Shown: positions 1-63,484, numbered from the stretch's first letter. The stretch is 64,000 nucleotides of DNA from Patescibacteria group bacterium (GCA_040387855.1 JAZKCY010000001.1:317857-381856), one strand, 5' to 3'. Translations and numbers: made by a program. Notes: a model not told the origin generated them from the sequence alone.

Positions 1-902
1 GACTTCTTGATGTATCAGCAGATGATTTGGCTCCAAAGAAAAGCTATTACGGAGCGGGAAGTGATTCATCATATGATTCTATTCAAATCTATTTGAAAGA
101 AATTGGTCAGTATCCACTATTAAACGCGTCACAGGAAAAAGATCTTGCAAAGCGAATTGAAAAGGGAGAACAAGAAGCTAAGAATCTTTTGGCACGAGCC
201 AACCTCCGACTTGTGGTTTCTATTGCCAAGAAGTATGTAGGCCGAAGTCCAGACCTTACCCTTTTGGATCTCATCCAGGAAGGGAACCTGGGCCTCTTTA
301 AGGCTGTAGACAAGTTTGATTGGACCAAAGGCTATAAATTCTCAACCTATGCAACCTGGTGGATCCGACAGGCTATTACACGTGCTCTAGCCGACCAATC
401 ACGAACTATTCGTGTTCCAGTGCACATGGTGGAAACAATTGCTAAGTATAAGCAGGTTGTACGACGACTTGCTCAAGATTTGGGACGAGATCCATTGCCT
501 GAAGAAATCGCTACAGAAATGGGAATGGATGTAGATAAGATTTACAATATCGAAAAGATTGACCAGAGTACTGTTTCACTTCAGAGTCCCGTAGGAGATG
601 ATGGGGGAGATAAAGAATCAGAACTTCAGGATTTCATTGCAGATGATAAAATTCTTTCTCCAGATCAAGATTCATCACGACGAATTATTGGTGATCAAGT
701 TCGTGAGATTCTCAATGATCTTCCAGAAAAAGAACGAAAGATTCTTGAATTGCGACACGGACTCATTGATGGCGTGCAGCACACACTTGAAGAAGTAGGT
801 AAAAAATTTGGTGTGACTCGAGAACGAATTCGACAGATTGAAGCGAAAGCTCATGAAAAGATTCGTCAGCACGAGAAAGTAAACCGGCTTCGAAACTATT
901 AA
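1..902 (+). CDS. rpoD: RNA polymerase primary sigma-70 factor, 5' end truncated by window edge
   Basis: Frame is open from base 3 into track ORF 27..902; region 1.2/2 ([16 protein letters not shown]), region 3 and region 4 HTH ([23 protein letters not shown]) motifs. Confidence 0.85.
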
Positions 903-20581: not shown

Positions 20582-20613
20582 GTGACCTCCTTGGGTCTTG
20601 GGTTAAGGGTCTG

Positions 20614-22473
20614 TTACTTCACGTTTTCGATGACGCGAACTTTGCCTGGGACGTTGATCCATCCACTGCCTGGTGGCTGATTGGGATCCCGGTACATTGT
20701 GTGCTCCGGAAACTCGAAGATCTCACCGCGGGTGCTACGGCCAAGGTATTGGCCATGTGCGTCTACGATGGGAACTAGTTCACGGAGATTGTATCGCGAA
20801 TCAAACATCGCCACTCCCAGCAAGTTCACAGGATGGTCACCGGATTCGTGAAGCCGGTTCCTGTAGAACACTCGTTGCCCACGTGGCTCGATGTGGACCA
20901 CATCGCTGACGAACTTGCTCTCGTCTACGTCGATGCTCTTTCCATCGGGAGCTGTGGTCACCGGAGCAATCCTGCGGGGTTCCCCAATAAAAACGGCCCC
21001 CGATCCCGTGGATCGGGTGGAGGCCATGGCGGGCGGCGGGGTCACCGTCCTGGTTGGGTTGGTGGTCGCTGCGACGCTCGGCTCGGCCGACGGCACCGTG
21101 GTGCCGTCGGCCGGAGCCGGGGTTGTGGGAACGGGGGAAACAGAAGCTCCGGGACCCGTGGGACCCGAAGTCGGAGGTGCTACTTCGAACATCTCCTTTG
21201 GCGCGTTGCCGAAGGTCATGACCGACGCCTCGAAGGGCGTGAGCTGCGAACCGTTCTTGAAGGTCAGCGCAACCCACTTCTTGCTGGACCGGCGCTGGAA
21301 GTCGTCGACCACCTTGTCGGTGAGCGTGACAACCATGGCCGAACCGCCGTAAGGGATCGTAAGACCCCGAACATGCGGCTCGGCACGCAGGACGATGTGA
21401 GCACCGTCAGGCAAGCCTGAGATACTCGCGACGGCCGGGACATGATCCGGGTGAAGGTTCGACATGCGAACTTCCTTCAACTGGTTCTTGTCGATGAGCG
21501 TCGGCCTTCCTGCCTCGGTCTCGCGGAACAGGATCTGCCACTGATCGTAGGGCAGGCCTTCGTGGTACACGACCGGCATCTCGCTCGGCTTGGGCGGCGG
21601 CGCCACCGCGAGGAGCGGGGGCGTCTTGGCCTTGGGCTTCGGCTTGTCCTCACCACGATCGGGCGTACCGGTCGGGGTGGGTGAGCCTGGCGGGACCGAA
21701 CCTGGTCCGGTAGCCGGCCGGCTTGTGGGCCGGCCGCTCTTGATGCGAGGCGCCGTGGGGTCGGGATCGGAGGGCGTGCCACCGATCTTGTCCTTCACGA
21801 GCTTCACATCATCCGCGACCTTGTCGACTCGGGAGCCAAGCGCGCCGACCTTGTCGTCGACCTTCTTGTCTCCAGCATCCACGTACTCCTTATGAGTCAT
21901 TGGATTGCCTGGCTTCGTACCCTCCATCTCGATCTCCGAGCGGAGCTTGAGGTACTCCTTCCACTCGGAGGGCTGAGTCGGCACGGGTGCGGCGGGGACC
22001 ACGTTCACCGGCGGCGTATCGTTGGAGGGCGCCTTCTTGGCGTTCCACCAGTCGATGCCCGCAGTGATCAGCATGTAGAGGATGACGGCCAGGAGCACCG
22101 CACCGATGATGATGAACCACCTCAGGTTGCGCTGCCACCAGGTCTGGAGTTCGACCGGGTCCGACGAGGCCGGGCCGCCGACGATCGTGTCGTCGGGTCG
22201 CGGCGGGGTAGCGGCGGGGTCGGCGTACTGCCAGGCCTGCACCTTGTAGGTCACCTCGGGGTCCTCCTTGCTCAGGAGCTTGTTGACCTTGTCGGTGAAC
22301 TTGGTGCCGGTGATCTGCCTGTTCGGCAGTGGCGGGGTGGGGCGGTCGCTGGCCTGGCCGGTACGGGTGACGATGTAGTAGTCGGCATCGGGAACGGGTT
22401 CCCAGCTGACCTTCACAACGTTCCCGTGCTGCGTGGCTTCGACGAGCTCCGGGGTAACGAGATTCGTGGGCAT
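20614..22473 (-). CDS. bitopic membrane protein: cytoplasmic FN3-like N-domain, one TM helix, long Pro/Thr-rich extracytoplasmic region with a C-terminal globular domain, encoded in a high-GC island
   Basis: VVKVSWEPVPDADYYIVTR (FN3-like), TM WFIIIGAVLLAVILYMLITAGI, repeats VDDKVGALGSRVDKVADDVKLVKDKIGG, PxxP tracts; about 64% GC. Confidence 0.5.
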   Translation of the reverse strand: MPTNLVTPELVEATQHGNVVKVSWEPVPDADYYIVTRTGQASDRPTPPLPNRQITGTKFTDKVNKLLSKEDPEVTYKVQAWQYADPAATPPRPDDTIVGGPASSDPVELQTWWQRNLRWFIIIGAVLLAVILYMLITAGIDWWNAKKAPSNDTPPVNVVPAAPVPTQPSEWKEYLKLRSEIEMEGTKPGNPMTHKEYVDAGDKKVDDKVGALGSRVDKVADDVKLVKDKIGGTPSDPDPTAPRIKSGRPTSRPATGPGSVPPGSPTPTGTPDRGEDKPKPKAKTPPLLAVAPPPKPSEMPVVYHEGLPYDQWQILFRETEAGRPTLIDKNQLKEVRMSNLHPDHVPAVASISGLPDGAHIVLRAEPHVRGLTIPYGGSAMVVTLTDKVVDDFQRRSSKKWVALTFKNGSQLTPFEASVMTFGNAPKEMFEVAPPTSGPTGPGASVSPVPTTPAPADGTTVPSAEPSVAATTNPTRTVTPPPAMASTRSTGSGAVFIGEPRRIAPVTTAPDGKSIDVDESKFVSDVVHIEPRGQRVFYRNRLHESGDHPVNLLGVAMFDSRYNLRELVPIVDAHGQYLGRSTRGEIFEFPEHTMYRDPNQPPGSGWINVPGKVRVIENVK

Positions 22474-34161: not shown

Positions 34162-35139
34162 ATGTCCAACATCCTCAGCCTCATCGTCGCTTCCGTCAAG
34201 AAGGCCCTCACCCCCGCCAACAACCCGATCGCACAGGCCATCCGGCCCGTCGTGATCGAGAAGATGGAAGGGCGGACCCTCTTCGCGGTCGCGCCGGCCC
34301 CGATCGAGATGCCGTCGATCAGCGTCGACCTGTTCAACGGGTCGATCAACGTCAACGGCACCAGCAAGTCCGACACCGTCAAGGTGTTCGGGCGAGTGGT
34401 CACCAAGACCGTCAACACCGACATGGGACTCGTCTCGTTCCCGGTGCTGAAGGCCGACTTCGTCGTCAACGGCATGTTGTTCTCCTACACGGGGGCCAAC
34501 AGCAGCGAGTGGTTCACCGTGAACACCGGCGCCGGCAACGACGTGGTGGAGGTGAGCATCGTGACCGGAGGTGCCTTCGGGTACTACGCCGGGTTGATCA
34601 ACACGGGCGCCGGTCTCGACAAGGTCCTCCTCAACCAGGCGGACCAGAGCGTGACCGTCGACACCGGCAACGACGCCGACTACGTGAAGGAGCTCGACGA
34701 CCCCAACAAGGCCCGTCACAACATCCTTCTCGGCAGCGGCAACGACGTCGCGGTGGTCGTGGACGACTACGTCGACGCCGGCAGCGGTGACGACAAGGTC
34801 TACGCGGCCCACAGCATCTTCGCCAACCCGAAGGACAACTTCGGTTCCGTGATCTACGCCGGCGACGGCAACGACACGGTCTACGGCGGTACCGGCGATG
34901 ACTTCATCTCCGGTGGCCGCGGCAAGGACACGATGTTCGCCGGGCTCGGGAACGACACGTTCCTGTACAACGCGTACGAGGTGAAGGACCCGGACAACGC
35001 CAACGGCGGCGCCGGTACCGACTCGGCCGTGCAGTACATCGACATCTCGCGTGGCGAGACGTTGGTGAAGTACCCCGGCATCTTCTCGAGCGTCGAGATC
35101 AAGACGTCGTACAAGTTCGACGGCAACAGCAAGGGCTGA
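34162..35139 (+). CDS. secreted RTX-like repeat protein, paralog 2, high-GC
   Basis: N-terminal VIEKMEGRTLFAVAPAP motif; repeats GSGNDVAVV, GSGDDKVYA, GDGNDTVYGGTGDDFISGGRGKDTMFAGLGNDTF. Confidence 0.55.
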   Translation: MSNILSLIVASVKKALTPANNPIAQAIRPVVIEKMEGRTLFAVAPAPIEMPSISVDLFNGSINVNGTSKSDTVKVFGRVVTKTVNTDMGLVSFPVLKADFVVNGMLFSYTGANSSEWFTVNTGAGNDVVEVSIVTGGAFGYYAGLINTGAGLDKVLLNQADQSVTVDTGNDADYVKELDDPNKARHNILLGSGNDVAVVVDDYVDAGSGDDKVYAAHSIFANPKDNFGSVIYAGDGNDTVYGGTGDDFISGGRGKDTMFAGLGNDTFLYNAYEVKDPDNANGGAGTDSAVQYIDISRGETLVKYPGIFSSVEIKTSYKFDGNSKG

Positions 35140-35249: not shown

Positions 35250-35307
35250 GGATGATTTTGAATATAAATTACTTGCCATAAATCATATTATATGGTATTT
35301 TCTTTTT

Positions 35308-35333: not shown

Positions 35334-35402
35334 TCGTCCGATAGGAAAGATTAAGGTAGTACTGCGGTAGTACCTCAATCTAGAATCTAGCAGGAGTGTT
35401 CT

Positions 35403-36335
35403 ATGTTTCTCTCCCAGATCAAGCAGCACCTCGTGTGCTCGATGGGTCTCACCAGCCGCGCCCCCAAGCGTGGTTCGGCTCCCAAGCGTCAGGCGCCGCC
35501 GGTTCGTCCGGTCGTCGAAACGCTCGAGAGCCTGCAGTACATGTCGGCGACGATCCATGACGTCAACGCCAACGGCGACGTCGTCGTTGAAGTCACGGGT
35601 GACGTCGGGTTCTCGAAGAGCTACACCGTGGTCACCGCGTCCAACAACGCGGATGGCATGGCGACGCTCACCGTCTCGCACGGGTACTTGAACCCCGTTG
35701 TCACCACATGGTCGGCCTCGGTCGACACCCCGATCTTCGGGGTCCTGATCCAAGGCGACGGCACCAACAACGAGATCTTCCTCAACGGGCAGACGTCGGT
35801 GTTCGGTGGAGCGCTGATCAGCGTGGACAGCGGAGATGGCAACGACCTGATCGGGGCCGCCGTCGACACCTCGGTGATGCTCAACGGTGGTGCCGGCAAC
35901 GACGGGATCATCTGCGGTGGCATGGCTGCCCTCGCCGAGGGCAGCAGCCCGGTTTTCATCTCCGGTGGCAGTGGCAACGACAACCTGCAGGGCAGTCAGG
36001 GCTTCGACGTCATCAACGGCGGCAGCGGCAACGACTACCTGCAGGGTAACACCGGCAACGATCAGCTCTTCGGCGGGTCGGGCAACGACCGGCTGTGGGG
36101 CAACCAGGGGGACGACTCCCTCAACGGCGGTGTCGGCGACGACTACCTGCGCGGCAACAGCGGCAACGACGTCTACTACCTCGACCTGACCTTCAGGTAC
36201 CAGGGCCGTGAGGTGTTGGATGACACCAGCGGCCGCGACTCGATCTACTACGCGAAGGACACCAACTTCAAGGACATGACGATCAAGGGCCGCTTCGAGG
36301 TCTACCGGCTCGTCCCGAATGCGCCCGGCGTTTGA
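35403..36335 (+). CDS. secreted RTX-like repeat protein, paralog 3, high-GC
   Basis: canonical nonapeptides GGSGNDYLQGNTGNDQLFGGSGNDRLWGNQGDDSLNGGVGDDYLRGNSGNDVYY; N-terminal basic region then VVETLESLQYMS. Confidence 0.6.
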   Translation: MFLSQIKQHLVCSMGLTSRAPKRGSAPKRQAPPVRPVVETLESLQYMSATIHDVNANGDVVVEVTGDVGFSKSYTVVTASNNADGMATLTVSHGYLNPVVTTWSASVDTPIFGVLIQGDGTNNEIFLNGQTSVFGGALISVDSGDGNDLIGAAVDTSVMLNGGAGNDGIICGGMAALAEGSSPVFISGGSGNDNLQGSQGFDVINGGSGNDYLQGNTGNDQLFGGSGNDRLWGNQGDDSLNGGVGDDYLRGNSGNDVYYLDLTFRYQGREVLDDTSGRDSIYYAKDTNFKDMTIKGRFEVYRLVPNAPGV

Positions 36336-36419
36336 GCAGTACTGAGCATGAGGCTCGGTCAAAGTGACCCTTGGGAAAGAGGATTTGTATGTACAACAAC
36401 GTGACAGGATGTCACATAA

Positions 36420-36460
36420 AGCAGCGACTTTGGGTAAAACCGGGTCGCTGCTTTCAATTT
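36420..36460 (+). terminator. rho-independent terminator after the RTX array
   Basis: 9-bp stem agcagcgac-tttgggtaaaaccgg-gtcgctgct followed by ttcaattttc. Confidence 0.6.
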
Positions 36461-36532: not shown

Positions 36533-37342
36533 ATGGATTCTACAAAAACAGGAAGAGTGGAAGGGAAGATCGCCCTTGTCACAGGTGCTGCTGATGGAAT
36601 TGGAAAAGCTATTGCAACCAAGCTTGCAGCAGAAGGTGCTACAGTAATAGTTGCCGACATTAATGCAGAACTAGGAACTAAAACTGCAGAGGAATTACGT
36701 GGGGTTTTTATGTCTCTTGATGTGAGTAATGAAGGTGCATGGCAAGATGCAGCGAGCTACATAACTAAAAATTACGGGCATCTCAATATTTTAGTAAACA
36801 ATGCCGGTATCATTGGTAAGGGAGCTCAAGATCCTGAAAATGCATCACTTACTGATTGGCAGGTGATTCATAAAATAAATCTCGACAGTGTGTTTCTTGG
36901 GTGCAAATATGCTATTAAGCTTATGAAAGAAAAGGGAGGTTCTATTGTAAATATGTCATCACGATCAGGAATAGTAGGCGTGCCAGGAGCTGCTGCATAT
37001 GCTTCAACAAAAGCTGCTGTACGAAATCATACAAAATCTGTAGCGCTCTATTGTGCACAGCAAGGATATCCTATTCGATGTAACTCAGTCCATCCTGCAT
37101 CTATCCTCACTGCAATGTGGAAAAATATGTTGGGTGAAGGGGAAGCGTATACAGAAAATCTTAAAAAGTTTGCTAAAGATATTCCAATGCAGCGATTTGG
37201 TACTCCAGAGGAAGTAGCTGCTGCTGTTTTATTCTTGGCTTCTGATGAATCATCTTACACAACTGGATCAGAACTCAATGTAGATGGAGGAATTTTGGCC
37301 GGAACGACAACAAGCCCCGATACAGGGCTTGAGAAGAAGTAA
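36533..37342 (+). CDS. short-chain dehydrogenase/reductase (SDR) family oxidoreductase
   Basis: TGAADGIGKAIA (TGxxxGxG), NNAG, catalytic YASTKAAV. Confidence 0.8.
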   Translation: MDSTKTGRVEGKIALVTGAADGIGKAIATKLAAEGATVIVADINAELGTKTAEELRGVFMSLDVSNEGAWQDAASYITKNYGHLNILVNNAGIIGKGAQDPENASLTDWQVIHKINLDSVFLGCKYAIKLMKEKGGSIVNMSSRSGIVGVPGAAAYASTKAAVRNHTKSVALYCAQQGYPIRCNSVHPASILTAMWKNMLGEGEAYTENLKKFAKDIPMQRFGTPEEVAAAVLFLASDESSYTTGSELNVDGGILAGTTTSPDTGLEKK

Positions 37343-37354
37343 AAGAGTTAATTA

Positions 37355-37723
37355 TTATGCAGTAGGTGTAAGACTTTTTTCTACGACATCGAGAAGGTGT
37401 CGACTGCTAAAAGGTTTGGAAACAAAGGTGTTGACGCCATAGGCTTCAATGCCTTTTTCCATATTATGATTTGCCGAAATCATAATAATTGGAATAGCTT
37501 TGGTTTCATCTTTTGATTTAAGTTCTTTAGCAATTTCACGGCCGTCTAAACCAGCAAGCATAACATCCATGAGAATGAGATCAGGCTTAAATGTGTTTAC
37601 AAGTTCGATAGTCTCTTCTCCTTTAAGAGTATATTTGGTTTCGTATCCTGCATTTTTCAACACCATCTCGATTCCTTTGGTAATAGGAAGATCATCATCA
37701 ACCACAAGAATTTTCTTATTCAT
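37355..37723 (-). CDS. stand-alone response-regulator receiver (REC) domain protein
   Basis: KILVVDDD...DLILMDVMLAGLDGREIAKELK, no output domain; the ATG directly follows the TAA of the upstream ORF in the same frame. Confidence 0.8.
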   Translation of the reverse strand: MNKKILVVDDDLPITKGIEMVLKNAGYETKYTLKGEETIELVNTFKPDLILMDVMLAGLDGREIAKELKSKDETKAIPIIMISANHNMEKGIEAYGVNTFVSKPFSSRHLLDVVEKSLTPTA

Positions 37724-38014
37724 TTAATATCCGTATTGATTATATTTAAAACCCTGTATACTTCTATTTTCGCTGGAAGTATCCTTAATGTCAATAAGAC
37801 TCAGTTTTTCTCCACGAGCTGCTTTCTCCCATGACTTTCGGAAAAAGTCTTTTGTTAGTTCGATTGATTTACTTCGACTGTCTGTTTTCTCAAAAAACGT
37901 AGAGAAAACACTATCTGCAGTATCTTCATAGAATCGAAGGAATTTTTCTTGTGTATTTCTCATATATTCAGTATAGATGCTAGGTATGAAGATTAAATGA
38001 AGGGGTCTTAACAA
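37724..38014 (-). CDS. small hypothetical protein, possible sigma-70 region-2-like helical domain
   Basis: probable start at internal MRNTQEKF; segment DSVFSTFFEKTDSRSKSIELTKDFFRKSWEKA weakly resembles ECF sigma region 2 (..AEDLVQETFLKAW..); low confidence. Confidence 0.3.
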   Translation of the reverse strand: MLRPLHLIFIPSIYTEYMRNTQEKFLRFYEDTADSVFSTFFEKTDSRSKSIELTKDFFRKSWEKAARGEKLSLIDIKDTSSENRSIQGFKYNQYGY

Positions 38015-38022
38015 TAAATCTT

Positions 38023-38241
38023 CTAATCAAGTTTTTGTACTTCAGCTCTAAATTCCTCAAGCATTTCAAGCATTTTAGCTTGGGACTTATCAATATCTTC
38101 TAAAATTTCTTTTTGCTGAGGGGTAAGATCTCCTGCCATTCCACCAATGAGCATATCCAAAAAAAGCTTTGATGAGGCAAGGGGAGTTCGTAGCTCATGT
38201 GATAGGTGAGAGAACAATTTTTTTGCTGAAGAATCAGACAT
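38023..38241 (-). CDS. stand-alone HisKA (DHp) dimerisation/phosphoacceptor domain protein, no ATPase domain
   Basis: H-box LSHELRTPLASSKLFLDML in a 72-aa ORF; a HATPase_c domain is absent from every frame downstream. Confidence 0.5.
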   Translation of the reverse strand: MSDSSAKKLFSHLSHELRTPLASSKLFLDMLIGGMAGDLTPQQKEILEDIDKSQAKMLEMLEEFRAEVQKLD

Positions 38242-38596
38242 GTTTTTTGATTGTTATTAGTAGTGAATCTAGATTGAATGGCTTTGCTATAAAATCATCA
38301 GCACCTGCATCCTTAACCGATTGTTCAGCTCCTGGATGAGCCGACATCATAATAATTGGAATTTGCTGTGTGGCTTTCTGACTTTTAAGCTTTTTACATA
38401 TTTCGCGGCCGTCCTTACCAGAAAGGAGGATGTCGAGGAGTATGAGATCAGGAAGAGCTTTTTTGTTTTTTTCAATTGCCTCAATCTCTTCTGGGTGTTC
38501 TGCTGCCACAACTTCATATCCAGAATACTCAAGAGTAAAACGCATGGCTTCCATGATGCTGTGATCATCTTCAATTACCAGGATCTTTTTACTCAT
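38234..38596 (-). CDS. stand-alone response-regulator receiver (REC) domain protein
   Basis: KILVIEDDHSIMEAM...DLILLDILLSGKDGREICKKLK; internal Met (MSKKILVIED, at 38596) starts 7 nt after the kinase stop; track ORF extends to 38662. Confidence 0.8.
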   Translation of the reverse strand: MSKKILVIEDDHSIMEAMRFTLEYSGYEVVAAEHPEEIEAIEKNKKALPDLILLDILLSGKDGREICKKLKSQKATQQIPIIMMSAHPGAEQSVKDAGADDFIAKPFNLDSLLITIKKHV

Positions 38597-40223
38597 GTGT
38601 TTGTTTTGTGAAAGGCATAGTAAAGCAAAACTTTGATCCCTTTCCCTTAATACTTTTAACATCTATTTTGCCATGATGTCTTCGAACTATTTCGGAAGAT
38701 ATATAGAGTCCAATTCCGAGTCCAGGAAATGTACGTGCTTCCGGACCCGACACTCTATAAAAACGTGTAAAGATTTTCTTTTGCTGTTCTTTTGTGATGC
38801 CTATACCGTAGTCTTGAACAGTAATTTCTGCATTATGTTTTGTTTCACCAACATGAACAACTACTTTATGTGCCTCTGGTGAGTATTTTATCGCATTCGT
38901 TAGTAAATTTGTAATTACTTGTGCAATACGATATTTGTCACCCCATACTTTCTTTGTGAGAGTGCCTTTGATTGTAATCTTGTGTTGAATTGAACTTGCC
39001 TGAACACTTTCGATTGTATCTACAACAACTTCTTGTAAATCAAAAAATTCCTCATGAAATTCCAGCTTACCCAACTGTAATTTTGAAATATTGAGAAGAT
39101 CATCAATAAGCAGCGTGAGTTTATTAATTTGGGTTTCCATCTTTTTAAGTGGAATGATCATTTGATCTTCACCTTTTCGTTTCATCTGCTCTAGAATAAC
39201 CTGCGTGTACATTTTTAAAGAGGTGACTGGGGTTTTCAATTCATGACTTGCAACACTAATAAACTCATCACGAACTGAAACTGCTTTTTGAGATTCTGTA
39301 AACAAACGTGCATTGTGAATAGCGAGTGCCGCCCGAGCTGCAACTTCTTGTGCAACAGTGAGATCTGCTTGTGTATATTTTCGCCCCGATTCTGAATAAA
39401 TAAAACTGATTGCACCAACAGGCTTATCTTGAATGATAATTGGAAGCATCATCACCGACGATAGCTGAAGCTTGCGAGCAAGTTTAAGGTGTTCTTCATC
39501 TCGTGCAGAAGCGACAAGCATTTCATCAGTAATAACTGGATAAAATTGTGTTTCACCCTTAGTAAGTACTTTAGTAAGTCCATTAGTCTCATCATTAATA
39601 TCAGGTGGATCTTTTTTGTTGAGTTCAATAGCCCATTTTACTTTTTTGGGGTCTATGTGGGCTACAGCCAATCTATGTATTTGATTATCGGCAGTAAGCA
39701 TATCTACTGCACACCAATCGGCAATCTCAGGTACACCAAGATCCGCAACAGCTTTGAGTGTTTTATTGTAATCAAGTGATGAAGATAATACTTTACTCAC
39801 TTGAGCTAAGTATGAAAGATTTGATTCCACTTGTTTTCGTTCTGTAATATCGATATTAACTCCAATAACCCGAATTGCTTTTTTCTTTGCATTGCGAACT
39901 ATTTTTGCTCGAGTCATCAGATGGTGAACACTTTTATCAGGCCAGATCACTCTGAATTCAATATTAAGTTCATTTTCGTGTTTCAATCCATATGCTGTTG
40001 CATCAGCAACTTTCTTCTTATCCTCAGGGTGAAGTAGTTTTGACCATTCGACGCTATTTTTTCCTTTAAAACCGCCATTTGGAAAGCCATAGAGGGCTTC
40101 AAAACCCTTTGACCATGTTGATATTCCTTTTACAAGATCCCATTCAAAAGTACCAATTTTTCCGGCTTTTTGAATAAATTCATCTTGATCTATGTGGTTT
40201 TGTTCCAAATGTGATGAGGACAT
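38589..40223 (-). CDS. cytoplasmic sensor histidine kinase, PAS-GAF-HisKA-HATPase_c
   Basis: PAS (GTFEWDLVKG...), GAF-like region, H-box SHELKTPVTSLKMY, G-boxes GIGITKEQQKKIF / GLGIGLYIS; probable start MSSSHLEQ at 40223 (track 40289 uses upstream GTG). Confidence 0.8.
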   Translation of the reverse strand: MSSSHLEQNHIDQDEFIQKAGKIGTFEWDLVKGISTWSKGFEALYGFPNGGFKGKNSVEWSKLLHPEDKKKVADATAYGLKHENELNIEFRVIWPDKSVHHLMTRAKIVRNAKKKAIRVIGVNIDITERKQVESNLSYLAQVSKVLSSSLDYNKTLKAVADLGVPEIADWCAVDMLTADNQIHRLAVAHIDPKKVKWAIELNKKDPPDINDETNGLTKVLTKGETQFYPVITDEMLVASARDEEHLKLARKLQLSSVMMLPIIIQDKPVGAISFIYSESGRKYTQADLTVAQEVAARAALAIHNARLFTESQKAVSVRDEFISVASHELKTPVTSLKMYTQVILEQMKRKGEDQMIIPLKKMETQINKLTLLIDDLLNISKLQLGKLEFHEEFFDLQEVVVDTIESVQASSIQHKITIKGTLTKKVWGDKYRIAQVITNLLTNAIKYSPEAHKVVVHVGETKHNAEITVQDYGIGITKEQQKKIFTRFYRVSGPEARTFPGLGIGLYISSEIVRRHHGKIDVKSIKGKGSKFCFTMPFTKQTHE

Positions 40224-40274
40224 ATACGTAGTCTTTAGACATTGGCATAATACAGTATGGGCTGATACAAGTAA

Positions 40275-40303
40275 ATAAAAACTCCCCACTTGGGGAGTTT
40301 TTG
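40275..40303. terminator. bidirectional rho-independent terminator
   Basis: aaactcccc-actt-ggggagttt flanked by A and T runs. Confidence 0.65.
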
Positions 40304-40812: not shown

Positions 40813-41958
40813 ATGTATAAAAAATTGCTCATCATTGGTGTTGCTGCTCTTTGTATGAGTTTGTTTGGTGTAGTTCAGATTCATGCTCAAGAAGAGTCTT
40901 CAGATGTGCAGGGTGTATGGAAAGCAAAAGTACTTGAGGTTACAAACCAGGAAACACGACTCGTTCCAGGTACTGATACACAGTCTACCTACCAAACTCT
41001 ACAAGTAGAAGTTTTGGAAGGGGAAAGAAAAGGCCAGATTATAACTATAGAAAATGATTTCCTAAAATTAGAAAAAGGGGATGCTTTCTTTATGAATTAT
41101 CTGAAGAAAGCAGATGGAACAGAATTATATTCTGTACGCGACATTGAGCGAAGGCCAACCATCTATTTTCTTATCGCACTTTTTGTTGCTGTGATAATCT
41201 CATTTGGCGGCAGACAGGGGATCCGCTCTTTAATTAGTCTTGCTGGTAGTTTACTTATTATTTTATATGTTTTATTGCCTGCGCTATTAAAAGGATACAA
41301 CCCCGTACTTATGAGTACTCTCATTGCTACATGTATTTTGTTTTTAGCAATTTATTTTACACATGGATTTAACAAGGAATCTACAGCTGCATTTCTAGGT
41401 ACTGTAATAGCAATTGTTGTAACTGGAATTCTTGCATCTCTTGCTGTGAGTGCTGCAAGCCTATCTGGCTTTGCTTCAGATGAGTCAGTGTTTCTAAATC
41501 TCACAACGAGGGGTACATTAAATATGCAGGGACTCTTATTGGGTGCAATCATTATTGGAGTGCTTGGAGTTCTTGATGATATCGCAATTACACAGGCGAC
41601 CGTTGTGAGAGAATTATATGGCACCGCACCACATTTAAAAAGATTGGAAATATACAAAATTGCAATTCGTGTAGGGAAAGAACACGTTGGAGCATTGGTA
41701 AACACACTTGCTCTTGCATATACAGGCGCGTCGCTACCGTTACTACTATTGTTCTCTTCAGGAAGTACATCTGTATCCATGATTTTAAATTATGAAATTT
41801 TTGCGACAGAAGTTATTCGAACAATTATAGGTAGTATCGGACTCATACTCACAGTTCCGATAGTAACTGGCTTAGCTGTTGTGCTCCTCGAGAAGACAAG
41901 AGGACAAAAGCCTCACCATGCACACGGTCACAGCCATTCTCATAATCACGTGCATTAG
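40813..41958 (+). CDS. YibE/F-like multi-TM membrane protein with His-rich C-terminal tail
   Basis: signal/TM, soluble N-domain, about 8 TM helices, C-terminus HHAHGHSHSHNHVH. Confidence 0.45.
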   Translation: MYKKLLIIGVAALCMSLFGVVQIHAQEESSDVQGVWKAKVLEVTNQETRLVPGTDTQSTYQTLQVEVLEGERKGQIITIENDFLKLEKGDAFFMNYLKKADGTELYSVRDIERRPTIYFLIALFVAVIISFGGRQGIRSLISLAGSLLIILYVLLPALLKGYNPVLMSTLIATCILFLAIYFTHGFNKESTAAFLGTVIAIVVTGILASLAVSAASLSGFASDESVFLNLTTRGTLNMQGLLLGAIIIGVLGVLDDIAITQATVVRELYGTAPHLKRLEIYKIAIRVGKEHVGALVNTLALAYTGASLPLLLLFSSGSTSVSMILNYEIFATEVIRTIIGSIGLILTVPIVTGLAVVLLEKTRGQKPHHAHGHSHSHNHVH

Positions 41959-41992
41959 TGTATACTAGTAAAGTACTTATTAAACAAATTAC

Positions 41993-42145
41993 ATGGCATC
42001 AATAGCATATTGCATGAAGTGCAAAGAAAAGCGGGATATGAAAGATGAGAAGGAGGTAGAAATGAAAGGTGGCCGACGAGCATTACAGGGAGTATGTTCA
42101 AAGTGTGGCACTAAAATGTTTAAGATCTTAGGTAAGGCAAAATAA
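41993..42145 (+). CDS. small zinc-ribbon protein (about 50 aa), not in ORF track
   Basis: manual translation MASIAYCMKCKEKRDMKDEKEVEMKGGRRALQGVCSKCGTKMFKILGKAK with CxxC...CxxC; followed by a terminator. Confidence 0.4.
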   Translation: MASIAYCMKCKEKRDMKDEKEVEMKGGRRALQGVCSKCGTKMFKILGKAK

Positions 42146-42169
42146 ACATTGAGATAGTAAAAATAAAAA

Positions 42170-42200
42170 GCACCCCGAAAATCTCGAGGGTGTTTTTTAT
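42170..42200 (+). terminator. rho-independent terminator
   Basis: gcaccccga-aaatc-tcgagggtg followed by ttttttatt. Confidence 0.55.
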
Positions 42201-42258
42201 TGCCCAGATTGACTCTAAACTAATTGTGTCCTGTCACACATTTTTTCGAAAGATAGAG

Positions 42259-42279
42259 ATACTTAAGCGTCTTAAGTAT
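42259..42279. promoter_or_regulatory. 9-3-9 perfect inverted repeat, candidate operator upstream of the CHRD gene
   Basis: ATACTTAAG-cgt-CTTAAGTAT about 50 nt upstream of the 42328 start. Confidence 0.3.
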
Positions 42280-42327
42280 TATCGTAAACATGATTGTTTA
42301 TAGATTTTAAAAATAGAATTTTAAATT

Positions 42328-43200
42328 ATGACTAAAAAATTATTATCAGGAATGCTTGTTGTTACTTTGCTTGCTGCTGGAACAGCTGTAGCAACAGCTG
42401 ATACTTCAATGCATGGTTCAACAACAATGCAGACTCATTCAATTATGGTAGGTGATTATAAACATACGTTTAGTGCAAATCTTTCTGGAGGAATGGAAGT
42501 GCCACCTGTAACTACTCAGGGAATGGGTACTAGTGAATTTCATGTGTCAGGAGATGAGCGAACGATTCACTATAAGCTAGGAGTACACAATCTTTCATCT
42601 CCAGTTACAGGAGCTCATCTTCATTGCGCACCTATGGGACAAAATGGGCCTGTTGTTGTTCCATTAGCAAATCCAATGGGATCAACGACACATATGATGT
42701 CTGAAGGAATGATTACTGAATCTCAAATAACAGCAGCATCAGCAGCATGTAGTCCAAATATTCGCACCGCATCACATCTAGTACAGGCAATGCGGGAAGG
42801 ACAGATGTATGTAAATGTTCATACTGAATTACATCCCAGCGGCGAAGTGAGAGGTCAATTAATGCTTCAAGATGGAAAGGCAAGTCCAGTATATTCTCAT
42901 GATGATCATATGAAAATGTATAAAGATGGATACTCTATGATGAAAGAAGGTTATTCTTGGATGAGTAATCCAGACAAAATGTACGAAGGATATATGATGA
43001 TGCACAAGGGCTATATGCATATGCATGATTCATACAAGCACGTTGATGCTGATCATCATGCAATGATGACAGAGGCTCATACTTGGATGCTCAGTGCACA
43101 TCAAAAGATGCTCGATCATTATAATGCAATGCACAATTCTCTTATGATGCATTCACCAATGATGCATGCAACGTCTACTGCCACAACAACATCAATGTAG
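42328..43200 (+). CDS. secreted CHRD-domain protein with Met/His-rich C-terminal tail
   Basis: signal peptide; CHRD-like LSGGMEVPPVTTQGMGTSEFHV ... VHNLSSPVTGAHLHCAPMGQNGPVVVPL; tail MMKEGYSWM, MMMHKGYMHMHDSYKH, MMHSPMMH. Confidence 0.6.
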   Translation: MTKKLLSGMLVVTLLAAGTAVATADTSMHGSTTMQTHSIMVGDYKHTFSANLSGGMEVPPVTTQGMGTSEFHVSGDERTIHYKLGVHNLSSPVTGAHLHCAPMGQNGPVVVPLANPMGSTTHMMSEGMITESQITAASAACSPNIRTASHLVQAMREGQMYVNVHTELHPSGEVRGQLMLQDGKASPVYSHDDHMKMYKDGYSMMKEGYSWMSNPDKMYEGYMMMHKGYMHMHDSYKHVDADHHAMMTEAHTWMLSAHQKMLDHYNAMHNSLMMHSPMMHATSTATTTSM

Positions 43201-43303
43201 TCTATTCCAATAACTGTTTGAAACAATAAAACCTCAGAAAACTTCTGAGGTTTTATTATGTGTATATATGATAAAATGTAGCTAAAGTTTCTATAAAATT
43301 ATT

Positions 43304-43828
43304 ATGAAGAAATCTGCACTCATTACTTTTTTTGCTTTCATAGCTGCATTTATTACTCTTTTGGCTAGGGAAGCTATAAGCCCTACCGCTTCTCCACAAA
43401 CTCTTCCTGCAAGTGTGTACAATGTGGTTCAAGTGGTAGATGGAGATACTATTAAAGTAGAAATAGACGGAACAAAGCAAACATTACGATTGATAGGCAT
43501 TAACACTCCTGAAACTGTGGACCCACGAAAGCCAGTAGAATGCTTTGGTAGGGAAGCATCAAACAAAGCAAAAGAATTGCTTGCTAATCAAAATGTAAAA
43601 ATTGTCGCTGATCCCACTCAAGACGAGCGAGATAAATATGATAGGTTGTTGCGATATGTATATTTAGAAGATGGAACAAATTTTAATAAACTCATGATTG
43701 AGCAAGGATATGCATATGAGTATACCTACGATGTTCCGTATCAGTATCAAGAAGATTTCAAAGCTGCTCAGCGATATGCCCAACAAAATAAATTGGGATT
43801 ATGGGGTGCTACTTGTTCTCAAAACTAG
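43304..43828 (+). CDS. secreted thermonuclease (staphylococcal nuclease, SNase fold)
   Basis: N-terminal TM/signal, VVDGDTIKVEIDGTKQTLRLIGINTPET, RYVYLEDGTNFNKLMIEQGYA. Confidence 0.8.
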   Translation: MKKSALITFFAFIAAFITLLAREAISPTASPQTLPASVYNVVQVVDGDTIKVEIDGTKQTLRLIGINTPETVDPRKPVECFGREASNKAKELLANQNVKIVADPTQDERDKYDRLLRYVYLEDGTNFNKLMIEQGYAYEYTYDVPYQYQEDFKAAQRYAQQNKLGLWGATCSQN

Positions 43829-44618
43829 TTGCCATATAATGTGATTCTCCTGGTTCTTCATGTCCATGGTTTACAAATGTACCGATGGTAAACATGAGTG
43901 CAATACCTAAAATTAAAGAAACTATATGGATACTAAGATGATCATGTTTTCGTACTGAATCAATAGTGTGGGGAAGGAGATCTCGTAGTACTACATAAAT
44001 GAAACTTCCTGCAGCAAGGCCTAGCAATGGCAACTGGAATTGTTCAACAGCTGATACAAAGAATGTGAGAACAACACCAATAATTATAGTTCCAGAAATA
44101 AAGAAGTTACGAATAAGAGCTTGTCGGGAAGTGTATCCTGCCTCTTTAAGAATAAAAAATTCTGATGTTTCTTGAGCAAGTTCATGGATCAAAATTGCTA
44201 GAGCAGTAGTTATACCTACATAGGTACTAACTAAAAATGCAGTAGTAAGGAGAATGCCGTCGCCAATATTATGAAGTGCATCACCAATTTGTAATCGTCG
44301 AGCATCGATATGTGTGTGCTCATGATCGTGTTCAAGTGTGTCGTGATGGTGGTGAGTATCAGGAATTAATCTACTTGCAATCTCAACAACTAAAATTCCA
44401 GCTATCATCCACAAAAATACTGTACTTACTGATGAAGATTCATGAAGTACTTCTTCAACAAGTTGATAAATAATTACAAGAAACACACCCATTGAGAAGG
44501 TGATAAGGAATCGCAAATTATGTTGGAGCCAATTGTGTAATCGTGCAGAAAGAAAAATTCCTCCAATGAGAGATCCACACATAATAGCTACAACCGAGAG
44601 TGCAACTGGAATTATCAT
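43809..44618 (-). CDS. ZIP-family divalent metal (Zn/Fe) transporter with His-rich loop
   Basis: HELAQETSEFFILKEAGY signature (HExPxExGD-like), loop DTHHHHDTLEHDHEHTHID; internal Met MIIPVALSV at 44618 preferred (track ORF 44831 overlaps the upstream gene). Confidence 0.7.
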   Translation of the reverse strand: MIIPVALSVVAIMCGSLIGGIFLSARLHNWLQHNLRFLITFSMGVFLVIIYQLVEEVLHESSSVSTVFLWMIAGILVVEIASRLIPDTHHHHDTLEHDHEHTHIDARRLQIGDALHNIGDGILLTTAFLVSTYVGITTALAILIHELAQETSEFFILKEAGYTSRQALIRNFFISGTIIIGVVLTFFVSAVEQFQLPLLGLAAGSFIYVVLRDLLPHTIDSVRKHDHLSIHIVSLILGIALMFTIGTFVNHGHEEPGESHYMATSFENK

Positions 44619-44667
44619 ATAAACTCGAGTATATTCCAATTCATAAATTAATGCAAGTAAATTGCAT

Positions 44668-45480
44668 TTAGACTGAGCACTGAGATAGTGATCCAGATTC
44701 AAAACCTCGATTAAATGAAGTGACCCGTTGTTCTGATGAACCGTGTGTCCAACTTTCTGGATTGGTTCTGCCTGTTGTTGCCTTTTGTATACGATCATCT
44801 CCAACCGCAGCTGCTGCATCAAGTGCTTCATTTATTTCACCCGGTGAGAATATTCCTAAGTCTTTTATTGAATGAGCCCACATTCCTGCATAACAGTCTG
44901 CTTGAAGTTCTGTTGCAACAGATTCAGCATTTGATTCACGTTCATTTAAACTCCCTAATATATTTTGTACATGATGACCGACTTCATGAGAGATAACATA
45001 TGCTTCAGCTACATCTCCACCTTGAGCTCCAAGTCGAGAACTAAGTTCTTCAAAAAAAGTTTCGTCTAAATAAATAGTGCCATCCAAAGGACAGTAATGT
45101 GGTCCTACTCGTGCATCTGCACCACCACACTCTGATTGTGTTGATCCTCTGAAAAGTACCAGTGTTGGTTCTTGATATGTACGATTGTTTTCGGCAAATA
45201 TTCGTTTCCACATATCATTGTTTGAACCCAATACTGTTGATGCAAATACTTCATAACTATCCGCTCCTTCAAAATCCTGAGCGTTGTATGTTTGCTGTTG
45301 CTGAAGCTGGTTTGGATCTATTTGTGTTATAACGTCAGTTACATCACCTCCATTAAGTAATGTAAAAATTATTCCAATAATTAGGCCCGTAATTCCTAAA
45401 CCTCCTCCAATAGCCGCTGGCCCCATTGCGCGTCTATCTTGAACATTCCCACGTGATGATACTTTATCCCATAATGCCAT
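44668..45480 (-). CDS. YpfJ-like putative neutral zinc metallopeptidase, membrane-anchored
   Basis: N-terminal TM, HExxH in YVISHEVGHHVQN, conserved ELQADCYAGMWAHS region. Confidence 0.65.
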   Translation of the reverse strand: MALWDKVSSRGNVQDRRAMGPAAIGGGLGITGLIIGIIFTLLNGGDVTDVITQIDPNQLQQQQTYNAQDFEGADSYEVFASTVLGSNNDMWKRIFAENNRTYQEPTLVLFRGSTQSECGGADARVGPHYCPLDGTIYLDETFFEELSSRLGAQGGDVAEAYVISHEVGHHVQNILGSLNERESNAESVATELQADCYAGMWAHSIKDLGIFSPGEINEALDAAAAVGDDRIQKATTGRTNPESWTHGSSEQRVTSFNRGFESGSLSQCSV

Positions 45481-45527: not shown

Positions 45528-47195
45528 TTATTCTGCGAGCGGTAGAGTGAAGTAGAACGTTGAGCCTTTTCCTTTAATACTTTTAACCCATAATCTTCCT
45601 CCTTGATTCACTATAATTTCATTACAAATGTAGAGACCTAAGCCAAGTCCTGGATATGTTTTTAATTCAGGAGTATTTATTTGATAGAACCGTGTAAAGA
45701 TTTTATCTTGATGATCTTTATCAATTCCAATACCAAAATCTTGAACACCTACAATCAATTCTTTGTTTTTTTTCTTAATCTCAACAATGATTTTGTTTGC
45801 ATGCGGAGAATACTTAATCCCATTGGTTAGAAAATTAATTATTACCTGGCGCACTCTATCTTTGTCGGCAAATACTTTTGAAGAATCAGCAGTTCTGACA
45901 GTGATTTTATGAGTAGCTGTTGTCGCTTGTACATCTGTCACTACATCAGTCAATAAATTCTTAAGAGAGAACTGAGACTTTTTGTATTCTAATTTACCTT
46001 TTTGGACTCGAGTAATATCCAAAAGATCAACTATAAGTTTGGTAAGTCTATCAAGTTGTTCTTCTATTCGAGTGGCAAACATATGACCTTTTGCATCATT
46101 TTTGTCTTTAAAATGTTGATTCAAAACATGAGAAAACATTTTAAGTGAAGTTACTGGAGTCTTAAGCTCGTGACTTACAAGAGCAACGAAATCTTCTTTT
46201 TGTTGGTCTGCCAATTTCTTTTCTGTAATATCACGACCAATAGCAGATGCTCCAATAATATTACCCTTAGTATCTTTAATGGGTGATACTGTAAGAGATA
46301 CAAAAATTTCTTTTCCAGATTTATGAAAACGACGTGTTTCATAGTGTTGGATACGTTGACCCTTTTTTATGCAGCTAATTATATATTCCTCATCCTTATG
46401 AAGTGATGGGGGGATTAAAAAAGTAACATGCTTACCTATAATTTCTGAGTCTTTATAGCCATACATTTTTTCTGCTCCACGATTCCAGCTCGTAATTACT
46501 CCGTTCAAATCTTTACTCGTAATTGCATCGCTTGATGATTCAACAATTGCCGCGAGTCTCTTCTGAGCAAAATATGCTTCTTCAAGTTCTATCGTTCGAT
46601 TTTCAAGATCAACCTGAATCTTTTTTTCATCAGTAATGTCTTGAGCTGTTCCAATCATCTTAACAACTCTGCCTTTTCTGTCTTTTATAACTCTGCCTAT
46701 GCCTCGCACATATCTAATAGAACCATTTTTTCGAAATACACGGTGATAGAGAAGATATGGCTTTTTTGCTTTAAATGCCGTTTCAATTATTTTTTTTATT
46801 TCTGCTTGATCTTCGGGATGAATGAGAGATATATACTCATCAAAAGTTGGATTGTGTTTTGAGACGGGGAGATCAAATATCTTAAATAATTGAGGTGACC
46901 ATATAATAGTGTTGGCTAAAACATCCCATTGCCAGTTACCAAGCTTAGCTGTTGTTTGGGCTAGCTGAAGTTCATTGTTTACAGATTCAATTGTTGCAAT
47001 CTTTTCATGAATTACTTCTGTCATCAATTGAATACCTGTATACAATTCTGTGAATTCATCATCATTATCAGGAAGAGTGATTTTAGTAGAAAAATCACCA
47101 ATTGCCGCTTTTGCAAAGAGGGGGCGAAGCTTTTTTAATTGTTTTTGAACATTTTTCTTGTAATGTTCTAGTCCGGGATCTTTCATTATTTCCAT
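45528..47195 (-). CDS. sensor histidine kinase with HAMP-like N-terminus, two PAS domains, HisKA and HATPase_c
   Basis: H-box SHELKTPVTSLKMF, G-boxes GIGIDKDHQDKIF / GLGLGLYICNEI, 555 aa, no TM. Confidence 0.8.
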   Translation of the reverse strand: MEIMKDPGLEHYKKNVQKQLKKLRPLFAKAAIGDFSTKITLPDNDDEFTELYTGIQLMTEVIHEKIATIESVNNELQLAQTTAKLGNWQWDVLANTIIWSPQLFKIFDLPVSKHNPTFDEYISLIHPEDQAEIKKIIETAFKAKKPYLLYHRVFRKNGSIRYVRGIGRVIKDRKGRVVKMIGTAQDITDEKKIQVDLENRTIELEEAYFAQKRLAAIVESSSDAITSKDLNGVITSWNRGAEKMYGYKDSEIIGKHVTFLIPPSLHKDEEYIISCIKKGQRIQHYETRRFHKSGKEIFVSLTVSPIKDTKGNIIGASAIGRDITEKKLADQQKEDFVALVSHELKTPVTSLKMFSHVLNQHFKDKNDAKGHMFATRIEEQLDRLTKLIVDLLDITRVQKGKLEYKKSQFSLKNLLTDVVTDVQATTATHKITVRTADSSKVFADKDRVRQVIINFLTNGIKYSPHANKIIVEIKKKNKELIVGVQDFGIGIDKDHQDKIFTRFYQINTPELKTYPGLGLGLYICNEIIVNQGGRLWVKSIKGKGSTFYFTLPLAE

Positions 47196-62302: not shown

Positions 62303-63484
62303 CTATTTTAGCTTTTTTGGGGTTTTATGAATAGGCAACGAGAAAAAGAACGTTGTGCCCGTACCAACTTTGCTTTCCAACCAAATTTTACCTCCATGAG
62401 ACTTTATAATTTCAGAGGTGATATAGAGTCCAAGTCCAAGACCTTTAATTTCTCGCTCTTTTTTACCATTAGTTCTATAGAATCGTTCAAAGATCTTTTC
62501 TTGCTGATCCCTCGCTATACCCATGCCAAAATCTTGAACACTAATGATAATATCTGTTTTGTTTTTGCTTATCTTAATAGCTATCTTTTTACTATCTGGA
62601 GAATACTTAATAGCATTGGTTAATAAGTTTATAAGTACCTGACTAATACGTTCTTTATCAGCAAAAATCTTAATGCCTGTTGAACCTGACACAGTTATTT
62701 TATGCGTATCTGTAGAGTATTGGAATGTCTCAACCTCTTCATGAACTGCCTTATCCAATAAGAAATGATTTCGATGCATTGCCATTGTTCCAGATTGAAT
62801 CGAATACACATTGAGGAAAGAACTCATCATGCTACTTAATCTATCAATTTGAGAATCAATTTTATTTGAAATAAAAAGGGAATTGATATCTTTATCTTTT
62901 TTATGGCGCTTTTGCAAAAGCTGAATAAACATTTTGATACTTGTAAGAGGGGTTTTTAGTTCATGCGATGCCATTGCAATAAAATCATCTTTCTCTTTTT
63001 CAATTCTGCGTTGCTCAGTCACATCCTCAATGGCAAGTAAAATGAGCTCAGTTTGATGTCCCTCAAGTACTATACGTCGAGCATTGAGCATCATGGTTCG
63101 GGTGCCAATATCCTCAAAATGGTGAGTTACTTCATAATCATTAAAAACAGAATCTTTTGGGAGGATTTCTAAAAGGAGCTTTTTAAGTGGGGGAATGTCC
63201 CATTGTCCGTTACCAAGATCAAATATCTTTTTATTATAGGTTTCAGACTTTTTTACTTCAAACATCTCAAAGAAAGCCTTATTAGCTGTCTTAATGCATA
63301 AGTCTTCATTTAAGATGACGAGAGGTTCACGAACTGTTTCAACAATTGCTTCAGCGTAGGCAAACATGACTACCACATCTTCAACAGTTAGATTTTTTAT
63401 ATCTTTAATATCCTTAATATCCTTGAGGAGTTCGATGGCTTCATTGGCTTTCTCGTGAGCCTTGATGTTCTTTTTGTTTTTCAA
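62303..63484 (-). CDS. cytoplasmic sensor histidine kinase (PAS-HisKA-HATPase_c)
   Basis: H-box SHELKTPLTSIKMF, G-boxes GMGIARDQQEKIF / GLGLGLYITSEI. Confidence 0.8.
   Translation of the reverse strand: MKNKKNIKAHEKANEAIELLKDIKDIKDIKNLTVEDVVVMFAYAEAIVETVREPLVILNEDLCIKTANKAFFEMFEVKKSETYNKKIFDLGNGQWDIPPLKKLLLEILPKDSVFNDYEVTHHFEDIGTRTMMLNARRIVLEGHQTELILLAIEDVTEQRRIEKEKDDFIAMASHELKTPLTSIKMFIQLLQKRHKKDKDINSLFISNKIDSQIDRLSSMMSSFLNVYSIQSGTMAMHRNHFLLDKAVHEEVETFQYSTDTHKITVSGSTGIKIFADKERISQVLINLLTNAIKYSPDSKKIAIKISKNKTDIIISVQDFGMGIARDQQEKIFERFYRTNGKKEREIKGLGLGLYITSEIIKSHGGKIWLESKVGTGTTFFFSLPIHKTPKKLK

Follow-up and report, generated by a model that had tools for sequence, protein, structure and literature searches.

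An uncharacterised signalling cassette with a HisKA-only protein and a putative sigma mimic in a Patescibacteria operon

In a stretch of 64,000 nucleotides from a Patescibacteria group bacterium (GCA_040387855.1, JAZKCY010000001.1:317857-381856; hereinafter, the window), five open reading frames (ORFs) occupy positions 40223-37355 of the minus strand and encode, in this order, a sensor histidine kinase, a single-domain receiver (REC1), a protein that consists of a HisKA (DHp) domain alone, a small ORF product that we refer to as the mini-protein, and a second single-domain receiver (REC2). According to Pfam, none of the five genes encodes a DNA-binding domain, and the question that this locus raises is by what route a signal would pass through these proteins and on what it would act in the end. 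A previous interpretation made from the sequence by itself (the sequence-only reading) had placed five minus-strand genes here, all of which are present as ORFs, and Pfam agrees with its domain calls, namely a PAS-GAF kinase, REC, HisKA-only and REC. The answer that we reach is that the operon joins a widespread kinase-REC1 module to a rare cassette that comprises the DHp, mini-protein and REC2 genes, and that this cassette is a genuine signalling unit, conserved and uncharacterised. As for the route of the signal, we prefer, tentatively and at somewhat short of an even chance, a phosphotransfer from the kinase via REC1 and the HisKA-only protein to REC2, which would act through the sigma-like mini-protein.

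The mini-protein and its receiver partner

The small ORF most likely starts at the ATG at position 37963 and encodes 79 amino acids (37724..37963, minus strand), because all homologues align from this methionine and the NCBI annotation is that of a 79-residue hypothetical protein; the TTG at 38014, from which a product of 96 residues had been read, is probably too far upstream. With the ATG start, the spacer between the HisKA-only gene and the mini-protein gene is 59 nucleotides rather than 8. The small ORF has no Pfam family and neither have 12 relatives, even at E <= 10. A word-indexed search returned only the query itself, phmmer, run in full against 1.8 billion cluster representatives, yielded six short relatives, and a profile search widened the family to 12 members of 77-98 residues, all of them singleton clusters; no longer relatives were found at E <= 0.001 among the 1.8 billion representatives. 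The family core, FLxxYxxxVDxVFSYYYE+TxDRGKSLEL(T/V)xxxFxKxW, is followed by a variable, low-complexity tail, and nine of the 12 members carry NQ[YF]GY at the C-terminus (NQYGY in the window, 37724..37741), a motif that may be a docking peptide. Two of the members that do not have this motif share PFKGTN instead. The mini-proteins of the related loci L082 and L095 are 79% identical at a synonymous divergence (dS) of ~1.4, with a ratio of nonsynonymous to synonymous divergence (dN/dS) of 0.09 and one substitution only in the first 42 residues, the signature of a coding gene under purifying selection.

The cassette was seen only in low-GC uncultured bacteria. In two loci, L097 and L098 (GCA_013817565.1 and GCA_013811745.1), the mini-protein/REC2 cassette lies on contigs that are binned as Nitrosopumilus sp.; because the genes nearby, BacA and BrkB, correspond to the neighbours seen in the bacterial loci L082-84 and L095, the contigs are probably mis-binned.

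REC2 (37355..37723, minus strand; 122 residues) consists of a receiver domain (Pfam Response_reg, 6.6e-23, no further domain) in which D9-D11, D53, S83, F100 and K103 are intact, and thus has the features of a single-domain response regulator. Its ATG immediately follows the TAA stop codon of the small ORF, with no nucleotide in between. The pairing of the two genes is universal in the family: in each of the 10 members with a readable neighbourhood, a Response_reg-only gene comes directly after the mini-protein gene, and these receivers are orthologues of REC2 (phmmer E-values of 2e-33 to 5e-52 against REC2, far weaker against REC1), with an identity of 65-71% in L081 and L096 and 45-54% elsewhere. 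What lies around the pair varies. The window has the order kinase, REC1, HisKA-only, mini-protein, REC2; in L081 and, together with a convergent kinase, in L096, the order is OmpR-type regulator, HisKA-only, mini-protein, REC2; in L085/86 and L094, an OmpR-type regulator is followed by the mini-protein and REC2 genes and a convergent PAS kinase; in L082-84, L095 and L097/98, only the mini-protein and REC2 genes are found next to a convergent PAS kinase. The complete order in L081 is GAF kinase, REC1, a gap of 241 nucleotides, OmpR-type regulator, DHp, mini-protein and REC2, and the window operon looks like this arrangement minus the OmpR-type regulator. The kinase-REC1 pair is present in both DHp-containing loci with sufficient context, the window and L081, and the loci without a DHp gene have one bare receiver only.

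The arrangement exceeds chance, as it recurs in diverged relatives. What is kept there is the order of the cassette, in keeping with the sequence-only reading, whereas the conservation of the five-gene synteny as such has to be rejected, given that none of the best 80 kinase loci contains the DHp/mini-protein/REC2 part. The mini-protein and REC2 genes are separate in all 10 contexts and never fused. The stop codon of the mini-protein gene and the REC2 start share a reading frame in the window (37721..37726), in L082 (6259-6267) and in L096 (594-605), but not in L081, L085 or L094; because the loci differ in this respect, a read-through fusion that would yield a PhyR-like protein is rejected.

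The predicted structure and a number of weak matches suggest what the mini-protein might be. Modelling of the small ORF with AlphaFold2 from the single sequence reached a predicted local distance difference test score (pLDDT) of 55, and modelling with the 12-sequence alignment gave a helical hairpin (residues 2-27 and 30-49) with a pLDDT of 85-89. In a Foldseek search, ~27 of the 32 matches were chains of extracytoplasmic function (ECF) sigma factors, every one with an E-value of at least 0.55. Among PDB sequences, the family profile best matches the ECF sigma factor BldN, over residues 13-56 without gaps (E 0.41), and among the 13 NCBIfam families matched by the 12 members, eight are sigma families, including the BldN family (best E 9.9e-05), PRK12514 (0.0039), SigX, SigM, Sig70_bacteroi1 and SigK. 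The mini-protein of the window itself matches PRK12514 at E 0.12, with residues 5-50 aligned to positions 19-64 of the 180 in the profile and 12.3 bits compared to a cut-off of 265; the sigma families are matched only over their N-terminal ~60 positions. Seven Bacteroidota-type ECF sigma factors likewise have a region 2 that the hidden Markov model of the family recognises; their loci were retrieved by a pattern taken from the family and so constitute biased evidence, and a metagenome scan with the family pattern returned only full-length Bacteroidota-type ECF sigma factors. Our reading of these similarities is that the mini-protein would be derived from, or a mimic of, regions 2.1-2.2 of an ECF sigma factor. 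The previously noted resemblance to sigma region 2 thus survives in the predicted fold and in the weak profile matches to regions 2.1-2.2 but not in Pfam, where Sigma70_r2 gives no match. The mini-protein cannot be a sigma factor because regions 2.3-2.4 and all of sigma-4 are absent, and in the same vein it has neither the complete set of regions 2.1-2.4 nor the sigma-4 region of an ECF (group IV) sigma factor. In sigma factors, regions 2.1-2.2 are the principal point of contact with the beta-prime clamp helices of RNA polymerase and are also covered by anti-sigma factors (PMC8103513); either of these could be the target of the mini-protein.

In SigO-RsoA, sigma-2 and sigma-4 functions reside on separate polypeptides, and RsoA resembles the mini-protein as a small, stand-alone sigma region 2-like protein that is encoded apart from the rest of sigma (PMC8103513, PMC7826278). 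Conceivably, then, the mini-protein could be an RsoA-like positive subunit of the transcription machinery that binds core RNA polymerase while a separate DNA-binding partner recognises the promoter, and the OmpR-type regulators that are encoded directly upstream of the cassette in L081, L085/86, L094 and L096 would be candidate partners. Nevertheless, we consider this very unlikely: there is no OmpR-type regulator in the window, L082-84, L095 or L097; no sigma-4-like partner gene is present, the neighbours of the mini-protein genes being HisKA-only, REC-only or OmpR-type; the conserved part covers regions 2.1-2.2 only, without the -10 recognition and melting helices 2.3-2.4 or any evident region 2.3-like segment; and the universal, obligatory neighbour is a bare receiver, not a DNA binder. 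By description, the mini-protein is set apart from SigO-RsoA. The claim that the locus has no DNA-binding output holds for the five genes and for the window, in all 64 kb of which no OmpR-type regulator was found, but does not extend to relatives, as such a regulator stands upstream in four related layouts.

The HisKA-only protein and the kinase-REC1 module

The HisKA-only protein (38023..38241, minus strand; 72 residues) matches Pfam HisKA at 6.8e-13 over positions 3-58 of the 66 in the profile and contains no other domain; NCBI names the gene 'histidine kinase dimerization/phospho-acceptor domain-containing protein'. Its His15 is located in SHELRTPL (residues 14-21), which includes an H-E-x-x-T motif of the phosphatase type. 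A word-indexed homologue search returned only the protein itself; orthologues of 70 and 69 residues, 38-43% identical to the window protein, are encoded in L081 and L096, respectively, and the phospho-accepting His and H-[ED]-x-x-[TN] are kept in all three proteins. A tblastn search of 37300-38300 in all frames with the ATPase domain of the kinase detected no HATPase_c remnant (best E 0.16, inside REC2). We therefore reject the possibility that the gene is a decayed kinase, given that there is no ATPase remnant and that the short form is conserved, and also the possibility that it is a recent duplicate of the DHp domain of the adjacent kinase, to which it is only ~30% identical, with gaps. The previous view of a stand-alone DHp domain, as opposed to a degraded kinase, is borne out by these results, and the protein, with orthologues of the same 69-72 residue range, is a conserved stand-alone unit. 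Without an ATPase domain, autophosphorylation is impossible, so that the protein would take phosphate only from a phosphorylated receiver or from the ATPase domain of another protein; a phosphatase role could be an additional one. In the searchable literature, which did not cover subscription journals, we found no description of conserved 70-residue DHp-only proteins or of the mini-protein family.

Both the HisKA-only protein and the mini-protein resemble pieces of larger proteins, and the mini-protein family is very rare (12 singleton clusters), as might be expected if the two genes were no more than the non-functional remains of a kinase gene and an ECF sigma gene that have both decayed. This explanation is strongly disfavoured, to the point of being extremely improbable, by the lengths and boundaries that are kept in several diverged lineages, the retention of the His, the low dN/dS of 0.09 between L082 and L095 with a single change in the first 42 residues in spite of a dS of ~1.4, the presence of NQ[YF]GY in 9/12 members and the lack of ATPase remnants.

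All three DHp-only proteins have H-[ED]-x-x-[TN], a motif associated with the phosphatase activity of HisKA domains, which lends itself to another interpretation. In this view, the DHp-only protein would be dedicated to phosphatase activity or would serve as a sink for phosphate, its dimer hastening dephosphorylation and setting how long the signal lasts, whereas REC2 (and REC1) would receive phosphate straight from full kinases, either the adjacent one or two orphan kinases encoded elsewhere in the window (45528..47195 and 62303..63484). The isolated DHp domain of EnvZ is said to dephosphorylate OmpR~P in vitro, in work ascribed to Zhu, Qin, Yoshida and Inouye (PNAS 2000). In addition, the cassette of most relatives has no DHp gene and stands beside a convergent PAS kinase, which makes the DHp protein look like an accessory. 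Two findings do not fit. One is that three lineages at 38-43% identity have strictly retained the phospho-accepting His, a residue that several kinases do not need for their phosphatase activity; the other is that the window and L081 each combine DHp with a second bare receiver, REC1. A precedent for a phosphate sink in an analogous alphaproteobacterial network exists in LovK/LovR (PMC5964349). Altogether, a dedicated phosphatase appears somewhat unlikely.

The kinase (38589..40223, minus strand; 544 residues) contains the Pfam domains PAS_3 (6.6e-15), GAF (1.4e-07), HisKA (4e-12) and HATPase_c (3.2e-28). It has the motifs SHELKTP at 326 (with His327), NLLTNAIKY at 439, DYGIGI at 471 and GLGIGL at 501, that is, the H-box His and the N, G1, F and G2 boxes of HATPase_c that characterise a classical HisKA-type kinase; the kinases at the locus are of the HisKA type, not HWE/HisKA_2. 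REC1 (38234..38596, minus strand; 120 residues; Pfam Response_reg, 4.9e-24, no further domain) has intact D10/D11, D55, S85, F102 and K105, corresponding to the acidic pair, Asp, Ser/Thr, aromatic switch and Lys of single-domain response regulators. A scan of one genome per species found 255 relatives of the kinase, of which the best 80 were analysed. The homologues are spread across phyla, the closest ones (48-56% identity) belonging to Saccharimonadales, Chloroflexia and Thermomicrobiales, and a REC1-like gene (48-58% identity) directly follows the kinase gene in L001-L007; the L081 orthologue of the kinase is 60% identical. No relative of the small ORF and no short HisKA-only gene was found downstream of the kinase in the best 80 loci. 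Because it is found in relatives without these two genes, the combination of kinase and REC1 is a widespread, self-contained pair.

When the kinase-REC1 segment (38234..40223) is compared with L002-L007, the pairs from Chloroflexia and Thermomicrobiales (52-58% identity) are no less similar than a Saccharimonadales pair (48-49%), a pattern that hints at horizontal transfer between Patescibacteria and Chloroflexota. The two orphan kinases mentioned above, both on the minus strand, have a PAS-HisKA-HATPase_c architecture and no adjoining receiver gene; their cores are 40-47% identical to the kinases that flank the cassette in related loci, and they are candidates for extra inputs to REC1 or REC2.

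Could the operon, then, be made up of two independent systems that happen to be adjacent, with a self-contained kinase-REC1 pair and a cassette served by another kinase? Under this scenario, the five-gene operon would have come about through the loss of the OmpR-type gene that parts the modules in L081. The 241-nucleotide gap and the OmpR-type regulator between REC1 and DHp in L081, the occurrence of kinase-REC1 alone in Saccharimonadales and Chloroflexota and of the cassette alone with a convergent kinase, and the two orphan PAS kinases in the window are all in its favour. The gene junctions in the window speak to the contrary. The kinase and REC1 genes overlap by 8 nucleotides (ATGAGTAA), the REC1 stop and the HisKA-only start overlap by 8 nucleotides as well (ATGTCTGA), and the hairpin scan revealed no internal terminator between REC1 and HisKA-only, so expression of the two modules would be coupled; the two start/stop overlaps together with the 0-nucleotide junction before REC2 indicate co-translation. 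Moreover, the window kinase is the nearest match of the convergent kinases in cassette-only loci, both in the core (46-47%) and in PAS_3 (44%). We regard the independence of the two systems as unlikely. The spacing of 0-8 nucleotides previously given for the operon is correct for the two overlaps and the junction between the small ORF and REC2, and gives way to 59 nucleotides before the mini-protein gene.

A possible relay and known systems

The analysis establishes which genes and domains are present, that catalytic residues and synteny are conserved, that selection is purifying and that the predicted fold is sigma-2-like, whereas we infer each step of phosphotransfer and its direction, the interaction between REC2 and the mini-protein, and the target of the latter. 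In the relay that we tentatively prefer, the kinase would autophosphorylate on His327 and then phosphorylate Asp55 of REC1. The DHp-only protein, presumably a dimeric four-helix bundle, would accept the phosphoryl group on His15 and exchange it with Asp53 of REC2, acting as a minimal shuttle of the Spo0B/ChpT/PhyT kind that may also drain phosphorylated REC2. Having no output domain, REC2 would work by phosphorylation-dependent binding or release of the co-translated mini-protein, and the mini-protein, as a sigma mimic, would engage the beta-prime clamp helices of RNA polymerase or an anti-sigma-like partner. A relay with a mini-protein output fits with the universal mini-protein/REC2 pairing and with the presence of kinase-REC1 in both DHp loci that can be judged; in addition, none of the four signalling proteins has lost its domains or catalytic residues. 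A more specific proposal, in which REC2 and the mini-protein form a minimal two-component output, with a sigma-2.1/2.2 mimic acting on the clamp helices or on an anti-sigma-like partner and the bare 72-residue DHp protein feeding REC2, is rather unlikely to be correct. If it is, the phosphorylation state of REC2 would control the mimic, which on the clamp helices would compete with sigma, phosphate signals would reprogram transcription without a DNA-binding regulator in a tiny genome, and the bare 72-residue DHp protein would be the smallest known His phosphotransferase.

Several observations weigh against the relay and its sigma-like output. Kinase-REC1 occurs without the cassette in many phyla and, in relatives, the cassette occurs without REC1, beside its own convergent PAS kinase, so that the modules, being found apart, may signal independently. 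The gene before DHp in L081 and L096 is an OmpR-type regulator, not REC1, and this regulator could be the partner of DHp. The H-E-x-x-T/N motif fits a phosphatase role equally well. As to the output, neither Sigma70_r2 nor Sigma70_r4 of Pfam matches the small ORF or its relatives; the hhalign comparison with RpoE and AlgU, although aligned to the expected region (28-63), yields P=0.023 and a probability of 2%; the Foldseek E-values of at least 0.55 amount to a weak similarity to sigma; and the conserved core of the mini-protein, residues 1-50, corresponds to only two of the four sigma-2 helices. Finally, the sample is small, with three DHp loci and 12 members of the mini-protein family.

The closest functional parallel is the alphaproteobacterial general stress response, in which Pak or other kinases act via SdrG or MrrA on PhyT or PhyK, and further via PhyR and NepR on EcfG (PMC5898713, PMC5964349, PMC8103513). 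The logic would be the same in both cases, running from a sensor kinase through a single-domain receiver and a His phosphotransferase to a receiver linked to a sigma-like part that has no sigma function. In the Pak-SdrG-PhyT-PhyR and MrrA-PhyK-PhyR relays, a kinase-like protein serves purely as a His phosphotransferase that feeds the sigma-mimic regulator (PMC5898713, PMC5964349). The system described here differs in that the sigma-like part is a separate 79-residue protein with the helices of regions 2.1-2.2 only, the shuttle is a bare 72-residue HisKA hairpin rather than an HWE/HisKA_2 kinase-like protein, and the host belongs to Patescibacteria rather than Alphaproteobacteria; neither NepR nor EcfG turned up as a partner in the 64-kb window, which is part of a 981,549-bp contig of a metagenome-assembled genome. 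The PhyR architecture invoked by the sequence-only reading is not found: the N-terminal sigma-2 and sigma-4 parts of PhyR are absent, the mini-protein having two sigma-2 helices only and no sigma-4, and the sigma-like domain is never fused to the receiver.

The HisKA-only protein is reminiscent of Spo0B and ChpT, which are dimeric DHp phosphotransferases with a C-terminal alpha/beta ATPase-like domain (PMC3433190). Like Spo0B of Bacillus and ChpT of Caulobacter, it has a DHp hairpin with a phosphorylatable His, no autokinase capacity and a presumed four-helix dimer, and a further likeness is the placement of its gene between two receiver genes. Unlike them, it lacks the ATPase-like domain altogether and is a canonical HisKA domain with an intact H-box. 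Because these defining features are absent, the DHp-only protein is not a member of the Spo0B/ChpT family, and the mini-protein, for the same kind of reason, is not a member of the PhyR or ECF sigma families. The split histidine kinase system Rv0600c/Rv0601c-TcrA of Mycobacterium tuberculosis, the division of labour in which was reportedly described by Shrivastava et al., is similar in that phospho-acceptor and ATPase functions are found on separate polypeptides encoded in one locus. This three-protein system (PMC3544749) differs from the window operon, which includes a complete kinase and no ATPase-only protein and in which the DHp-only protein is much smaller. Lastly, PorX-SigP is a precedent for an output in which a response regulator touches an ECF sigma-type protein directly, PorX binding and stabilising SigP (cited in PMC7826278). 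There, a complete ECF sigma factor, SigP, is paired with a regulator, PorX, that carries an effector domain, whereas both partners are minimal here.

Surroundings of the operon and significance

At its 5' side, the operon is bounded by a GC-rich hairpin with a T run (40277..40302) that resembles a terminator of the upstream minus-strand gene. A promoter-like site found by a consensus scan, TTTACT-17-TATTAT (40247..40275, minus strand), is located upstream of the kinase start and is only suggestive, as such sites are not commoner in the operon region than in shuffles. The probable 3' end of the operon is a terminator-like hairpin on the minus strand (37311..37331), directly past REC2 and within the 3' end of a convergent SDR gene. 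Of the two terminators between which the operon had been placed, that on the 5' side thus stands, whereas the one at 36420 (36418-36454) is not the operon end because it lies beyond the SDR gene (36533..37342).

The G+C content of the window is ~37%, apart from a few high-GC islands. Two such islands, 20000-22500 and 34000-36400, have 59-62% G+C; the first contains a long ORF (20614..22473, minus strand) with no Pfam match, and the second encodes two RTX calcium-binding repeat proteins (HemolysinCabind; 34162..35139 and 35403..36335). A metal-related cluster (40813..45480) adjoins the operon, with genes for a membrane protein of the YibE/F type that has a His-rich tail, for a protein with a CHRD domain and a tail rich in His and Met (42328..43200), for a ZIP transporter (43809..44831) and for a zinc metallopeptidase (44668..45480). 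Only one sigma factor was found in the window, a sigma-70 of the primary type with regions 1.2, 2, 3 and 4 (27..902, plus strand).

Even if the model that we propose fails, the mini-protein and its receiver remain a conserved gene pair that deserves the definition of a family. As all five proteins are of small size and look soluble, direct in vitro tests of the model are possible despite the lack of cultured hosts. If the model is correct, the function of a His phosphotransferase or phosphatase would require no more than a DHp hairpin of ~70 residues, which would represent a minimal phosphorelay unit, and the use of a sigma mimic as a two-component output would have been invented independently for a second time, outside Alphaproteobacteria and in a split form. 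The cassette would then provide a rare handle on the coupling of sensing to transcription in the ultra-small genomes of Patescibacteria, which have very few transcription factors.

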